Below, one piece after another: positions 3,487 through 14,080 of a stretch of DNA of 14,080 nt. Source of the stretch: Pseudobacteriovorax sp. (lineage in GTDB: Bacteria; Bdellovibrionota_B; Oligoflexia; Oligoflexales; Oligoflexaceae); assembly GCA_050293845.1 (NCBI GenBank), contig JBNKNM010000099.1, forward strand, positions 5,161 through 19,240, in the 5' to 3' direction. Under the pieces are notes generated by a model, which ran no database searches, was not told the origin of the DNA, and worked only from the letters and a program-made list of their open reading frames with translations. How positions within the stretch are numbered: position 1 is the first letter of the stretch; every line of letters begins with the position of its first letter. The translations under genes were made by a program, and so were the position numbers.

Positions 3487-4850
3487 GGGCTTTTGTCGTC
3501 TGTCTGGGTTTGGGAATTACAAGCCTTTTTTTTATCTCGCTGTTTCATCAGGTACCACCCGAAACAGCGCCCCTTTCGGATACCATAACTTTGCCAACGC
3601 AAAAACACCCTGAGATCGAGCCGCAACAGGCTGAAATCAACCAGTCAGAGACTCTTCAAAAGGAGAATATCCAATCAGCTTTCGTAAAAAAACATTTTAA
3701 GAAAGCCCTTGCATTAGTTCATGCCGAGCTTGACTCCTATGGCATCAGTACATCCTATCGCAATTGGTTGACCCGACAAATTCCAATCATATACTCCTCT
3801 CAAGGATGGCAACTTCTACAGGACCAGAAATGCGACGAGGCTTTTATCATGTTTGATAAAGCGCTCCACCATGGTTCCGCCCCCTTTGCTTTCAAGGGTA
3901 TAGGAACCTGCGCCTACCAAAACCAGGATTACTGGCAAGCGGAACTCTATCTGCGAAAATTTTTTGAAGTCCATGGATTTGAGCTTGATGGTCTTCTTCT
4001 GCTGCTAGATGTCCTTGAGTCCCTGAATCAATTCGATCAAGCCGAACAGCTACTGGCGCGTTCCATCAAACAAAAAACTCTCAAGGTTGATGAACGCGAT
4101 ATCTTAACTCAAAAGCTAGCAAGTATGCGTGAAAAGCATCGTGAAAGCTATCACCAGACGAGTTTATCCGGCTCCTATATCACCATCTCCTACCGTGCCA
4201 TCGAACATGATGAGTTGGGCCCATGGGCCCTTCAGGAACTAGAGCAGTCCGTTGACGAATTTTTTCAAAATTTCTCTCTTCCCAGACCTACAGGTACCAT
4301 CGAAGCCGTACTTTATCCTGTAGAGGCGTTTAAAAAGTTGTCCCATACCCCGTTCTGGGTATCGGGTTTATTCGACGGACGCATTCGTATCCCTGTCCCC
4401 CTGCAACAAGAGAATATTGACTATAACAAAGTAAGCCGTATCCTGCGTCACGAGTTAACTCATGCTTTACTGACGGAAGCTTCCGGAGCTGGTATTCTTC
4501 CCACTTGGTTCCACGAGGGTCTTGCCTCTTTATTGGAATGTCACCCCTATTGCCAGAATAGACCATTCTCCCCTTCAGTAAATAGAGATCAATTTCTTCC
4601 CATGGAAAAGTTAGAATCCTCTTTCTTTGCCCTGTCCCAACTAGAAATTAATACTGCGTATGCGCAGAGCTATCATTTAATTCAAACGATCATTAAAATC
4701 GAAGGTACTAGTGGTATTCGTAGCCTTATCGAAAACATTCAACCCAATATTCCACAAAATTCGCAGACTCTACTAAAGCCTCTCGGCATGAGCGCAGATG
4801 ATGTATTTCACATGGCAGCAAAGAATTGGCTGAGCGAAAAAAAATTTTAA
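3483..4850 (+). CDS. Membrane-anchored or exported protein with a TPR-like region and a peptidase MA-like zinc metallopeptidase domain
   Basis: N-terminal hydrophobic segment, helical TPR-like middle region, and HELTH followed by PTWFHEGLA (gluzincin pattern). ATGA overlap with the grx stop codon. Confidence 0.8.
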   Translation: MRAFVVCLGLGITSLFFISLFHQVPPETAPLSDTITLPTQKHPEIEPQQAEINQSETLQKENIQSAFVKKHFKKALALVHAELDSYGISTSYRNWLTRQIPIIYSSQGWQLLQDQKCDEAFIMFDKALHHGSAPFAFKGIGTCAYQNQDYWQAELYLRKFFEVHGFELDGLLLLLDVLESLNQFDQAEQLLARSIKQKTLKVDERDILTQKLASMREKHRESYHQTSLSGSYITISYRAIEHDELGPWALQELEQSVDEFFQNFSLPRPTGTIEAVLYPVEAFKKLSHTPFWVSGLFDGRIRIPVPLQQENIDYNKVSRILRHELTHALLTEASGAGILPTWFHEGLASLLECHPYCQNRPFSPSVNRDQFLPMEKLESSFFALSQLEINTAYAQSYHLIQTIIKIEGTSGIRSLIENIQPNIPQNSQTLLKPLGMSADDVFHMAAKNWLSEKKF

Positions 4851-4976
4851 GCCCTAAACATTCTCGCCTTGTCCTGCAAATATTACCCTCCTATATACAA
4901 ACCGAGCCATTCGGCATAAAATAGTAGACATTGGCACCGACTCACCTTATCCATTCGTTCAAATCGGAGGCAGGCT

Positions 4977-6368
4977 ATGAAACGCTTTCCCCAATACTAT
5001 TGGTTGATTAGTATCGTCGTCCATCTATTGATGGCCCCCACCCTTAGTTATGGGAAGGAAGAAAGCAGTGATCCTGATCCCAGTGCAGTAAATGCCGTCA
5101 CCACAAGTGGTGACACTACAGCAACAAGCTCTGAATCTTCCAACGAACCTGAGACCCCTCCTCCGCGGAAGTTCTATGCAGCGGTTGGGTCTGGAAAAAC
5201 CCTGCCAGCAAAAGTACTGCGAGTCCGTCTTCCTTATCAAAACCTTTATGGTAAAGAAGGATTCGATGAGAATGGCAATAAAGAAAGCCTTGGTTTCGAA
5301 ATCAATATCGATGCCCTAGCTCTAGCAGCTGAATATGGACTCACCGATAAAATATCACTTGCAGTTGTTGCCCCCTTTGTGGTCAACAGTGAAGCTGGGC
5401 TTAACGCCAACACCATCCGCTTAAACAGCCGCAAATTTCATCGTGAGTTTGGTCGCTACAAGGATGCCGTAAAGTCTCTCATGCAGTCTCAAAACCTGTG
5501 CACTACCGATTCTGACTGTGAAGCGAAGATTTATTCCAGCAATTATGCGATACCTGCTAACCAAGAAGTTACAACAACTACTGGAGAAAAAGTTCTTGCC
5601 AGCTCCCATGAGCCTGTCGCTCGGCAGATCGACTCTCTTCTGTTTCGCTCCATCACACCCAAAGATGGTGAAACGGGACTAGGTGATGTAACCGTAGGAG
5701 GTCTCTACAATTTTTACTCTGCCAATAACCTGTCACTATCAACAGGACTGGGAATACGACTCCCCACAGGCAAGTTTAAAAATGTGCCGTCAGGTCAACG
5801 TGCCATAGGAGGGGGTGTTACGGACCTAGGCATCCGCTTCAACGTTGACTATCACTTCGCCAATTGGGGGGTCGTCGCCTTGCAACACCAGATTGAGCAG
5901 ATGATTATCAAAGGAGAATCTATTAAAGATTCTTCCATTTATAACGATCGCACCAATACCGGTGATCCTACCGATCCCCTCGCTATTGCTATTGGTGGTG
6001 ACGGCTTCGATAACAATCAAGAATTCGAAAGATGGGGCCTCGGTCATGATGGATTTCTGCGTTTCAACTTTGCTCTGACCCCTTTAGCCGACACCCTCCA
6101 GCCCATGGGCATAGGACTCAGTTACCGTTGGTATGAAGGGCGGGAGACTCGATATGATGGCCAAGCTTTTGACGGCAACGGCTGGCGCTATGATGAAATC
6201 ACCCGTCTGAGGTTTGCCGGATTCGCCATGAGCTGGGACGGACTCGGCATGAATCCTTTAGTGCCTTTATCATTTAAATATGAATATGAAACACCTATCA
6301 GTGGCAGCCTGGCTACCGTGGCACCTACCACCAATCGCATCCAATTCATCGGCTACTATAAGTTTTAA
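4977..6368 (+). CDS. Probable outer-membrane beta-barrel channel (phenol-degradation/MetA-pathway 'transporter'-like)
   Basis: Signal peptide; GGAGG RBS at 4966-4970; AAEYGLTDKISL, TGLGDVTVGGLY and GIRLPTG motifs; alternating amphipathic strands; C-terminal IQFIGYYKF with terminal Phe. Confidence 0.7.
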   Translation: MKRFPQYYWLISIVVHLLMAPTLSYGKEESSDPDPSAVNAVTTSGDTTATSSESSNEPETPPPRKFYAAVGSGKTLPAKVLRVRLPYQNLYGKEGFDENGNKESLGFEINIDALALAAEYGLTDKISLAVVAPFVVNSEAGLNANTIRLNSRKFHREFGRYKDAVKSLMQSQNLCTTDSDCEAKIYSSNYAIPANQEVTTTTGEKVLASSHEPVARQIDSLLFRSITPKDGETGLGDVTVGGLYNFYSANNLSLSTGLGIRLPTGKFKNVPSGQRAIGGGVTDLGIRFNVDYHFANWGVVALQHQIEQMIIKGESIKDSSIYNDRTNTGDPTDPLAIAIGGDGFDNNQEFERWGLGHDGFLRFNFALTPLADTLQPMGIGLSYRWYEGRETRYDGQAFDGNGWRYDEITRLRFAGFAMSWDGLGMNPLVPLSFKYEYETPISGSLATVAPTTNRIQFIGYYKF

Positions 6369-11105: not shown

Positions 11106-12095
11106 TTAATGTCCTAATTGATCCTCGGTGACAAATTTCATGATGCGACAGATTTCTTTGGGACGTTGGGAGCCTGAACTATCTCTCAAATACTTTGGAA
11201 ACAGAACAGGCCCAGAACAGGGGGCGATAATATCTTTACCATTATTGCCAATACCCAAACGCTGATCTTTTTCAACCCACTTAAAATTATACCATCCTTC
11301 GTCGAGCCTCGCCTCTTCTCCGTCAGGATAGGGAATCACTTCAGCCCAAGTTAAAATTTCTGGCTCTAGCTCTGATACCGTGAGTTCTTGACCTGTGATC
11401 TCCTTATTGACGCTGTTAAAGGCTTCCAAACATACCTTTAGACCCACACCTTCTTGGTAGGGGTGAAAGCCCTTTTTTCCCAGCTCCACCGTAATACCGA
11501 CTCCACCATATTTATTAACATATTCATCGGTACAGGCTCCATCTCGGGAAAACCCTCCGCCCCAATGTGTAACTATGGGAATATCATCAGCGAGGCTGCG
11601 AGCAAATCGATAGCATTTGGCGTTGTATGGGAATATAAAAAATGGCCTATCCGATGCTTCAATGGTCTGATGGATATCAACAAAAAATGCGGTTGTCTGC
11701 AAAACCGTTTCCAGCTCTCGGGCACGCCGATCTTCGTGCTGTGCCTGCTTATCCCTGGCAAAAGAGCGGTTAAGATCTCTTTCCAGATATCGTTTTTCCT
11801 CAAGGGAAGCCCATGGATTCCCTAATGCCAGCACAAAGGAAAAGTTAGGCTGCCACATACCACTGGCCAATAATTCAAGCAATCTATTCAGTACCCGAAT
11901 TCCTCCTACTTCATTGCCATGGGTAACAGCCATTACTGTTAGAGCAAGCTCTTTCCCAGGAATCTTCTCAGGTCTTCGATTCTTCGGGCTCAAGCGATAC
12001 ACATAGGGGCAAAGATTATCGACTAGGAATGGTAATCTTTGGGATTCCAGAACCTGAGTAAATAATTGAATTTGCTTTTTTATATTTGCTTTCAT
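11106..12095 (-). CDS. Succinylglutamate desuccinylase/aspartoacylase (AstE/AspA, M14) family zinc hydrolase
   Basis: THGNE, LGNP, DLNRSF, VDIH and ITVELG motifs. Start placed at the ATG at 12095; the ORF track extends to 12167. Confidence 0.88.
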   Translation of the reverse strand: MKANIKKQIQLFTQVLESQRLPFLVDNLCPYVYRLSPKNRRPEKIPGKELALTVMAVTHGNEVGGIRVLNRLLELLASGMWQPNFSFVLALGNPWASLEEKRYLERDLNRSFARDKQAQHEDRRARELETVLQTTAFFVDIHQTIEASDRPFFIFPYNAKCYRFARSLADDIPIVTHWGGGFSRDGACTDEYVNKYGGVGITVELGKKGFHPYQEGVGLKVCLEAFNSVNKEITGQELTVSELEPEILTWAEVIPYPDGEEARLDEGWYNFKWVEKDQRLGIGNNGKDIIAPCSGPVLFPKYLRDSSGSQRPKEICRIMKFVTEDQLGH

Positions 12096-12249
12096 AAGTT
12101 TATAACCCCTATGTGAAACCTGTTGACGTCCCCATGATAGAGAAGGACCAAGATTTGGCAATATCAATGTTCTCAGACAGTCCTTTGGCCTAGCTGCAAA
12201 CCATGCCAGATTATGATCATAAAACAGTAAGTTTATTAGCTTCTAGTGA

Positions 12250-12280
12250 TTGACAAGCGAGCACTTCATGGGTTTAGGAT
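12250..12280 (+). promoter_or_regulatory. Possible sigma70 promoter for the element/pfk transcript
   Basis: Perfect TTGACA at 12250-12255 and TAGGAT at 12275-12280. The 19-bp spacer is longer than optimal. Confidence 0.35.
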
Positions 12281-12290
12281 AGACACAACA

Positions 12291-12501
12291 GCTACTTACC
12301 CCCCACCTAAAGGAGGGGGCCTGTGAGGTGACTTACAAGGGAGACTAGTTGACCAGACCTCTGACAAGAAAGGATGTGCAGTACAATATGTTATTAGACG
12401 TTAACCGCAATGGAGAATTTCGCATCTACGATTCGATGCTCGCCGCAAGGCGTCTCCATTCCTCCCGGCCCTAAAGAGACCGGGTTTCTTGGAGAAATTT
12501 G
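12291..12501 (+). mobile_element. Non-autonomous miniature IS200/IS605-type element with HEARO/IscB-like ends and no nuclease or transposase ORF
   Basis: The left end has the hairpin CCCCCACC-TAAA-GGAGGGGG followed by TAGTTGACCAGACC, and 12300-12359 matches 14013-14072 at 56/60. The right end has TCTCCATTCCT-CCCGG-CCCTAAAGAGA-CCGGG-TTTCTTGGAGA, with a TAAAG-loop hairpin, followed by AATTTG and then ATGA. Confidence 0.7.
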
Positions 12502-13593
12502 ATGAAAATAGGTATCTCAACAGGGGGGGGTGATTGCCCTGGCCTAAACAGCATTATCCGAGCCGCTGTACGCTGCGCTAAAGAGCGGTTCAACTATGAA
12601 ATCTGGGGAATTAAAGATAGCTTTAATGGATTATTCGCAAAACCCTACGGAGTCTGGGAATTGGATGTCGAAAAGGTTTCGGGCATCCTCAGTCGTGGGG
12701 GAACCATTCTGGGAACGACCAATGCAGGTAATCCATTCAGTCTCAAGAATGATAATAACCAAAGGAAAAATAGTCATAACGTAAGCCAAAGTGTTGTTTC
12801 AGCTTATAAAGAGCTTGGACTTGACTGTATTATCGTAATCGGGGGAGACGGCACTCAAGGTATCGCCTACGAATTATCAAAGTTGGGGATCAATATCATT
12901 GGCATTCCCAAAACTATCGACAATGATCTTGCTTCTACCGACCAGACCGTTGGCTTTGATACCGCTGTCCAAGTAGCTGCTGATGCCATTTCTCGCTTAC
13001 AAACGACAGCGGAGTCTCACGCAAGGGTCATGATTCTTGAGGTGATGGGGAGAAATGCAGGTCATATAGCCCTTCATGCTGGCATTGCTGGAGGGGCCCA
13101 TTGCATCCTTATCCCGGAGATACCTTTTGCATATGAGGCCATCGTACAAAAAATCCATGAGCGACAACAAAGGGGGAAAAATTTTAGCGTCGTTGTCGTC
13201 GCCGAGGGCGCCTTCCCTAAAGGGGGCCAGGAAATGTTTAAGCAGGAGGTATCCGGGCGACAAAATTTAGGTGGGATTGGTCAAATGGTGGCCCAAGAGC
13301 TATATAATCGGATCAAATTAGAGACTCGTGTTACAGTATTAGGCCATATACAAAGGGGAGGAACCCCCACACATTATGATAGAATACTGGGAACTGCTTA
13401 TGGCGTTAAGGCCATTGAAATGGCGAGCCAAAAAAAATATGGCAAAATCGCTTCATTCCGCGGCGGTCGCATGGAAGAACTGGATTACAAGGCTGTCGCT
13501 GGTAAGTTTCGGCCCATTGCTGCCAACGACCTCCATTTAGAGACCGCTAAAGCGATTGGTATCTGCGTCGGTGAAGCATACACAAGGAGTTAA
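12502..13593 (+). CDS. pfkA: 6-phosphofructokinase (PfkA family, group III-like, probably ATP-dependent)
   Basis: TGGGDCPGLN, GGTILGT, IGGDGT, PKTIDND, EVMGRNAGH and LGHIQRGG. GGDG rather than GGDD suggests ATP use. ATG at 12502 with GGAG at 12491-12494; the ORF track starts at TTG 12499. Confidence 0.95.
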   Translation: MKIGISTGGGDCPGLNSIIRAAVRCAKERFNYEIWGIKDSFNGLFAKPYGVWELDVEKVSGILSRGGTILGTTNAGNPFSLKNDNNQRKNSHNVSQSVVSAYKELGLDCIIVIGGDGTQGIAYELSKLGINIIGIPKTIDNDLASTDQTVGFDTAVQVAADAISRLQTTAESHARVMILEVMGRNAGHIALHAGIAGGAHCILIPEIPFAYEAIVQKIHERQQRGKNFSVVVVAEGAFPKGGQEMFKQEVSGRQNLGGIGQMVAQELYNRIKLETRVTVLGHIQRGGTPTHYDRILGTAYGVKAIEMASQKKYGKIASFRGGRMEELDYKAVAGKFRPIAANDLHLETAKAIGICVGEAYTRS

Positions 13594-14004
13594 AGTTGCG
13601 AGCACTCTACAGCTTTAATGCGTCAGAGTATTCTTACAGACAAGTCCCGAACCAGTAGTACCTGGGCGGGCTCACAACTACCTCATTTTAACGCAGTATT
13701 AACAGCGTTTTCCATGGGGGCTCAGACGTTTTTTACGTAAAACGCGTGCTTTTTTCTTGGCGCGTAGTTTGGCCGTCTTTCTTCTATTACGGGGTGGTCT
13801 ATTTTTTTTCATGCTCTACTATCCCTACCAATTCAAAGCAATTTGTATTTTTTACTCAGCTTGTCAAACCGAAGCGAGGGGAGACTATACATGGTATACA
13901 GGATGAGAGCAAGCAATTACTTCGTCCTCCTCCTGCCCTGGAAATTTGTGAGTTTTTCTGGTTAATTATTGCATGATAACCATTTTAGCGAGGGGATACT
14001 GAGG

Positions 14005-14080
14005 GTCAATTACCCCCACCTAAAGGAGGGGGCTTGTGAGGTGACTCGCAAGGGAGACTAGTTGCCCAGACCACTAGCAA
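14005..14080 (+). mobile_element. Left end / 5' part of a HEARO-omegaRNA-like (IscB-associated IS200/IS605) element, truncated by the window edge
   Basis: Begins GTCAATTA, which can pair with TAGTTGCC at 14059-14066. This stem encloses the hairpins CCCCCACC-TAAA-GGAGGGGG and CTTGTGAG-GTGA-CTCGCAAG and is followed by CAGACC. The layout resembles HEARO/IscB omegaRNA 5' ends as I recall them. Confidence 0.7.

Follow-up and report, generated by a model that had tools for sequence, protein, structure and literature searches.

Transposons that encode IscB (ISC transposons) belong to the IS200/IS605 superfamily and are the closest described relatives of the locus studied here. As described by Kapitonov, Makarova and Koonin (2016, PMC4810608), these elements have a 5'-GTCA terminus and subterminal imperfect hairpins at both ends, and they insert between N and ATGA, coming to lie 5' of the ATGA without duplicating the target. 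That source also gives a length of 1.3-1.7 kb for the ISC elements of K. racemifer and describes termini that ISC elements share with antisense tnpB (IS605B) elements. A second relevant group was reported in Geobacillus stearothermophilus, where PATE-like minimal, ORF-less IS200/IS605 elements occur beside the ISGst elements that encode IscB or TnpB (Meers et al. preprint, PMC10055086). According to that preprint the wild-type TAM of the G. stearothermophilus IscB is TTCAT, and the terminal motif of IS200/IS605-type elements is the cleavage site recognised at excision.

The segment at 12291-12501 of the window (the whole stretch of 14,080 nt that was analysed) is very probably an internally deleted, non-autonomous copy of an ISC transposon, a reading to which we assign a probability of roughly 85%. 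The segment, hereafter the mini-copy, agrees with the ISC transposons of Kapitonov et al. (PMC4810608) in having an imperfect subterminal hairpin at each end, both in one orientation and with no terminal inverted repeats, in having no direct repeat in its flanks, and in lying immediately 5' of ATGA. A sister copy at 14005-14080 also has the GTCA-type 5' terminus, and antisense tnpB elements have termini in common with the locus. The mini-copy differs from the ISC transposons described in that source in its 5' terminus (GCTA, not GTCA), in its length (211 bp) and in its iscB, of which only the last 34 codons remain; it does not encode an IscB with RRXRR/RuvC and HNH domains, which makes it a derivative rather than a full member of the group. 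With two transposon ends and no coding capacity it fits a known class, the non-autonomous PATE-like derivatives, and it is no new kind of system. The sequence-only reading had noted that no long ORF lies inside, and a scan of both strands agreed with this, since the longest contained ORF is 41 aa. Like the PATE-like elements of G. stearothermophilus as the preprint presents them (PMC10055086), the mini-copy has two ends and no protein-coding gene and would depend on TnpA in trans, and the TTCAT TAM of that species is the ATGAA found at the mini-copy, read on the other strand. It differs from those elements in its visible iscB coding remnant and omegaRNA fragment, so that its descent by deletion can be read directly. 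The features of the locus are as follows.

12291..12298, plus strand: degenerate terminal octamer; HEARO P1 5' strand and transposon-encoded cleavage motif, at the right end in the TnpA convention
12300..12319, plus strand: subterminal imperfect hairpin 1, of the Y1-transposase type and also the first HEARO/omegaRNA hairpin (RNA fold; identical 21-mer at 14013-14033)
12320..12340, plus strand: second HEARO hairpin (fold; aligned to the second hairpin of the HEARO model)
12345..12359, plus strand: HEARO P1 3' strand, ending in TAGTTGAC, then the CCAGACC pseudoknot strand (alignment block; match to the Rfam consensus)
12360..12397, plus strand: junction zone with the deletion breakpoint somewhere inside; its left part is possibly still omegaRNA-derived
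12398..12502, plus strand: iscB remnant, the last 34 codons and a TGA stop at 12500-12502 (29/34 identity to the C-terminus of protein P0002)
12453..12495, plus strand: subterminal hairpin 2, the left end in the TnpA convention as reverse complement (DNA fold; blastn matches beside tnpB; alignment with the 3' ends of the IscB elements L011-L014)
12491..12494, plus strand: GGAG, likely the present Shine-Dalgarno sequence of pfk (read from the sequence; 7 nt before the ATG)
12502..12506, plus strand: target or transposon-adjacent motif ATGAA, its ATG being the pfk start (same motif 3' of the plasmid elements L011, L012, L013 and L014)
12502..13593, plus strand: pfk, ATP-dependent 6-phosphofructokinase, directly downstream (NCBIfam PRK03202, 366 bits, cut-off 253)
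14005..14080, plus strand: second, better preserved HEARO-type end, cut by the window end (RF02033 match; blastn to the 5' ends of L011 and L013)

The identity of the right third of the segment comes from its translation. Positions 12398-12499 encode 34 residues, 29 of which are identical, in a gapless alignment, to residues 409-442 of P0002, a 442-aa protein with an RRXRR domain (203 bits) and HNH domains that is 53% identical to annotated IscB genes. The similarity stops exactly at the common stop codon. The protein search used 12365-12499 as query, with one TAG read as X, and was restricted to proteins longer than the query; among 5.77e9 proteins P0002 was the sole candidate and the sole match (E=4.7e-10), and pairwise comparison of the remnant with P0002 gave E=6e-20. 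A tblastn search of the 34-aa remnant against plasmids returned one record, at E=3, which was rejected. On this alignment, the right third is the 3' end of an iscB gene and is co-linear to the stop, and its TGA takes its last base from the A that opens the target ATGA, as is also the case in the plasmid elements L011, L012 and L014. It had been proposed that the element lost iscB together with most of the RNA. The RNA is indeed mostly gone, but iscB was not wholly lost, and the 102 nt of its 3' end were retained because the end hairpin sits inside the coding sequence.

The left part of the segment recurs at the end of the window. Positions 12300-12367 and 14013-14080 form a direct repeat of 68 nt with 90% identity (7 mismatches), and weaker similarity extends outward to 12291 and 14005; the window ends at 14080, the equivalent of 12367, and the rightward extent of the repeat is thus only a minimum. 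The window contains exactly two occurrences of the 21-nt hairpin core, compared to none in 200 shuffles. The left-end module that the sequence-only reading had assigned to both places is therefore real. The second copy matches positions 1-66 of the HEARO model RF02033 (26.7 bits, E=0.0012, a 3'-truncated match under permissive thresholds), and blastn aligns it to the 5' ends of L011 and L013 with E-values of 7e-5 and 2e-4. The covariance-model check that had been suggested for the mini-copy therefore supports its neighbour, but the mini-copy itself has no significant match (15.8 bits at E=0.45, the gathering score being 83 bits), and its alignment forces deletions in which stretches of 16 and 116 model positions are reduced to 4 and 5 nt. 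When the stretch was cut at 12367, imitating the truncated mode of the second copy, no HEARO match was obtained at E<=1, and nothing in the whole window attains an Rfam gathering score. The covariance model may thus be said to back the mini-copy indirectly, via its 90% identity to 14005-14080. The first ~70 model positions, comprising P1, two hairpins and the 5' strand of the pseudoknot, are recognisable in the mini-copy, and the block at 12345-12359 is invariant or nearly so in an alignment with the second copy, L011, L012 and L013. With about two thirds of the RNA missing, the mini-copy is a fragment and not a member of RF02033. From its start, 411 nt past the pfk stop, the second copy continues out of the window. 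It is possibly a full-length IscB element, and pfk would then have an element on either side, both with the same orientation.

Full-length elements on plasmids show what both ends look like when the middle is present. A Polaromonas JS666 plasmid (L011) carries a complete element with a HEARO of 117 bits at 432-675 and iscB at 787-2223. A tblastn search of P0002 against plasmids gave 82 records, 60 of them with at least 80% query coverage, all below 60% identity and the best at 53%. Three of these records were fetched, from Pseudoalteromonas translucida pMEGA (L012), Shewanella aestuarii (L013) and Pseudoalteromonas sp. KG3 pPsKG3_1 (L014). The HEARO scores of L012 and L013 are 102 and 103 bits, and in L011, L012 and L013 the HEARO sits upstream of an annotated iscB gene; the IscB proteins of L012 and L013 are ~53% identical to P0002, the relative of the mini-copy remnant. 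These three elements are like the mini-copy in their 5' start and P1 block and in the hairpin in the 3' end of iscB, and they differ from it in retaining a complete HEARO (102-117 bits) and an iscB of 412-478 aa. At the 5' end, the mini-copy agrees with L011, L012, L013 and the second window copy in the hairpin, in the 3' strand of P1 and in the CCAG block. At the 3' end, L011-L014 and the mini-copy all have a hairpin within the last iscB codons and then end in TG directly before ATGAA. Blastn between these distant full-length elements and the mini-copy was weak, with a best E-value of 0.024 at each end. Together with the iscB remnant, the alignment of both ends to elements that have HEARO and iscB bears out the internally deleted, non-autonomous IscB-type element that was originally proposed. 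In L014, the 5' half of the HEARO (640-810) was found to be replaced by a group II intron end: Intron_gpII scores 63 bits at 647-723, ltrA lies upstream, and HEARO positions 93-175 alone remain.

The second hairpin of the mini-copy begins ~85 nt past the final base of the shared module and consists of an inner stem (12464-12468/12480-12484) and an outer stem (12453-12458/12490-12495) with CTAAAG in the loop. Folded as DNA, the region 12420-12510 has a free energy of -17.2 kcal/mol (z=-2.96; 2 of 200 shuffles do as well). An imperfect hairpin with this loop had been predicted from the sequence, and the hairpin itself held up. The hexamer is not diagnostic; CTAAAG occurs 19 times in the window where 8.9 occurrences are expected and carries no weight alone. 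The predicted ATGA directly after the element lies at 12502-12505, and all four fetched full-length elements are likewise followed by ATGAA. What had to be changed is the naming of the ends, since the TnpA convention takes the HEARO end as right and the end beside ATGA, with target TCAT, as left (Meers et al. preprint, PMC10055086).

The data suggest the following anatomy and history. In iscB orientation, an omegaRNA/HEARO end of ~75-105 nt, containing the terminal octamer, the Y1-type hairpin, the second hairpin, the P1 3' strand and the pseudoknot strand, is joined to the final 102 nt of iscB, which hold the other Y1-type hairpin (the left end in the TnpA convention). Judged from the comparators, ~1.3-1.6 kb is missing, namely everything else of the omegaRNA gene together with iscB codons 1-408. 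The deletion breakpoint is between ~12360 and 12398. It is not placed more finely because the sister copy ends at the equivalent of 12367 and the HEARO alignments are at best marginal: local alignment of 12358-12400 to three HEARO genes showed no significant similarity beyond ~12360, the observed score being reached by 174 of 500 shuffles for L012, 25 of 500 for L013 and 453 of 500 for L011. The element would have entered by single-strand 'peel-and-paste', either as the present segment or as a full-length ancestor, and landed immediately 5' of the ATGAA whose ATG is the pfk start, with no target duplication. The present copy would make no IscB product and no complete omegaRNA scaffold; it is most likely a decaying relic that is transcribed within the pfk leader, to which it would donate the GGAG. 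Shown directly are that both ends are homologous to those of such elements, that the C-terminal part of iscB is retained and where the segment lies with respect to pfk, whereas the mechanism of the deletion, the loss of mobility and the part played by the GGAG are inferred.

The state of the 5' terminus bears on whether such a copy can still move. The first five bases (12291-12295) are GCTAC, whereas GTCAA is found in all six comparators (the second window copy, L011, L012, L013, L002 and L005) and the Rfam HEARO consensus starts with GUCAa. The erosion of this terminus, which had been suspected from the start, is thus evident, and the terminal motif differs at 3 of 5 bases compared to 7 of 68 in the following stretch. 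The true 5' boundary could lie at ~12296 if the first bases are flank, which would shorten the element by ~5 nt. The terminal motif is the cleavage site and it is altered in the mini-copy, so a Y1 transposase can probably no longer excise the element properly, and we infer from the sequence that mobility is reduced or lost. No transposase family was found among 12 window ORFs with NCBIfam or 6 window ORFs with Pfam, and no tnpA was seen in the 14,080-nt window. The mini-copy is ~10% diverged from its neighbour and the iscB remnant is 15% diverged from P0002 at the protein level, and it is therefore not recent.

One different explanation is that the deletion did not occur in place, and that the mini-copy belongs to a PATE/MITE-like family that is active and multi-copy, having already had its junction when a Y1 TnpA acting in trans moved it in. 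Both hairpins of the mini-copy are intact, ORF-less minimal elements do accompany IscB/TnpB elements in G. stearothermophilus (Meers et al., PMC10055086), and PATEs have been placed in the IS200/IS605 superfamily (Kapitonov 2016, PMC4810608). However, the altered terminal motif and the ~10% divergence from the neighbouring copy do not agree with an active family, and, as a weak argument, no second mini-copy or parent element was documented in the one contig scan, which matched six loci with the source genome not among them. An active family is thus an unlikely source of the mini-copy, although it is the alternative that survives best.

The segment is most likely an ordinary decayed mobile element that now makes up the leader of pfk. 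NCBIfam PFK profiles align from residue 1-2 when pfk starts at the ATG at 12502, and since the element lies between the upstream region and this ATG, transcription of pfk from upstream would place it in the leader. A consensus scan of 12050-12600 found no sigma-70 promoter on the plus strand and no terminator. The GGAG is encoded within the Pro-Gly-Glu codons of the iscB tail and is also present in P0002. In addition, an upstream ORF of 30 codons (12410-12502) has a TGA that overlaps the pfk ATG as TGATG. A similar arrangement was seen in L011 (2221-2225), L012 (2170-2174) and L014 (2083-2087), where the iscB TGA ends on the A that opens ATGAA and this ATG is the annotated start of the next CDS (TGATGA), so that these elements, like the remnant in the window, are placed directly on a host start codon. 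L013 is the exception, as its ATGAA is not a gene start.

These observations allow the idea that the remnant is exapted, that is, kept as the putative ribosome-binding site of pfk, perhaps with translational coupling through the 30-codon upstream ORF. Within 20 nt of the ATG there is no Shine-Dalgarno-like motif other than the GGAG, which belongs to the element. The upstream ORF terminates in a TGATG that spans the pfk start, and in three of the four fetched full-length elements the next CDS starts at the stop-overlapping ATG. However, there is no Shine-Dalgarno motif before the ATG at 12410, the GGAG is explained by the codons of the iscB tail with no need for selection, it is not conserved at other element ends, and the L013 element did not land on a gene start. 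Exaptation is therefore doubtful, a little more so than an active family. The same degree of doubt applies to the broader proposal that this IscB clade is organised for insertion at ATGA(A) start codons and couples host translation to itself, with the last ~100 nt of the pfk remnant as an exapted initiation region. If this were true, an iscB stop completed by the target (TG plus A) and overlapping the host ATG would link translation of the host gene to the element, and the hairpin, the GGAG and the TGATG overlap would be the working translation start of an essential glycolytic gene, not debris.

It could also be asked whether the mini-copy is a working stand-alone guide-RNA gene, in which a truncated omegaRNA, with the 5' flank as its guide, serves an IscB made elsewhere, for example by the element at 14005. 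Stand-alone omegaRNA loci have reportedly been described, and the 5' domain of the RNA and a would-be guide flank are both present here. This is very improbable, however, because the mini-copy has only the first ~70-95 of 211 HEARO model positions and so no complete scaffold, it lacks the large central and 3' helices as well as the pseudoknot partner, its P1 contains two additional mismatches, and the covariance score is far below gathering.

The hairpins themselves are not confined to IscB elements. A contig scan with the 21-nt hairpin core gave six loci (Oscillochloris, Peribacteria, Loktanella, two Woesearchaeota contigs and a Chlamydiae MAG); the remainder of the module was present in none of the six, and none had a HEARO at E<=1. 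In L002, the hairpin is preceded by GTCAACTA and lies 10 nt beyond the stop of an opposite-strand gene for a 456-aa OrfB_IS605/TnpB. This antisense arrangement identifies the HEARO 5' end as the IS200/IS605 right end, read as its reverse complement. When the segment was compared to plasmids by blastn, 16 records came up, the right-hairpin matches having E-values between 5e-3 and 8; four of these records were fetched (L007, L008, L009 and L010). In Deinococcus wulumuqiensis pDrdI (L010), the right-hairpin match lies 70 nt upstream of an opposite-strand tnpB start and is followed by ATGA, and the record additionally has the upstream small hairpin and a TCTCCATTCCTCCC block, so that the 3' end of the mini-copy is similar to the left end of this Deinococcus tnpB element; in Polaromonas JS666 plasmid 2 (L008), the match lies just past a tnpB stop. 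The same hairpins are thus found antisense to tnpB in L002, L008 and L010. No transposon gene is annotated beside the match in Geoalkalibacter (L007, H11). The Acinetobacter match (L009, H13; E=8) lies inside a phage HNH endonuclease gene and is probably due to chance, and blastn against phage records gave 12 records with a best E-value of 0.2 and nothing usable. While the two hairpins alone are common to tnpB elements, a TnpB-type (IS605B) origin or a chance resemblance is barely credible, since a P1 3' strand and pseudoknot strand of this kind belong to HEARO specifically, the right third is a sense-orientation IscB C-terminus and therefore excludes both, and chance is further contradicted by the remnant E-values and by the 21-mer that occurs twice against 0 in 200 shuffles.

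Some of the loci that contain the hairpin deserve mention in their own right. In the Chlamydiae MAG contig (L005, ~4850-5030, minus strand), GTCAACTA and the identical 21-nt hairpin occur with no adjoining iscB or tnpB ORF, and this is possibly another ORF-less IS200/IS605 end fragment. L004 and L006 (around 5021, minus strand), from one Woesearchaeota MAG, have ~80 nt in common around the same hairpin and also share a second hairpin with a CTAAAG loop; their neighbours are unrelated genes (GatD/GatE in L004), and the likeness suggests that an archaeon has a small repeated element. The L004 ORF that adjoins the hairpin was considered as an IscB and ruled out, as it is GatD.

The rest of the window holds a few further features. 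Perfect 33-nt tandem repeats, in at least 3 copies, occupy 1-112 and reach the window start, and 9-nt tandem repeats lie at 710-758. Both are inside a 5'-open ORF (2-1717) that has no NCBIfam or Pfam match, which suggests a repeat-rich protein without a family match. A 28-nt AT-rich inverted repeat (12051-12078/13835-13862, 82% complementary, with 1756 nt between the arms) brackets the mini-copy and pfk and may be due to chance. Between pfk and the second element end, a 37-codon ORF on the minus strand (13699-13812) would encode an extremely basic, Lys/Arg-rich peptide.

The locus is a readable example of how a transposon with an RNA-guided nuclease decays, in that both transposase-binding ends remain while the nuclease and most of the guide-RNA gene are gone. 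For annotation it is useful to know that neither Rfam nor protein-domain scans pick up such remnants, and that they can pass for riboswitch-like leaders. What is left of the element sits exactly on the start codon of a housekeeping gene, and this bears on how IscB elements spare the genes that they insert in front of.
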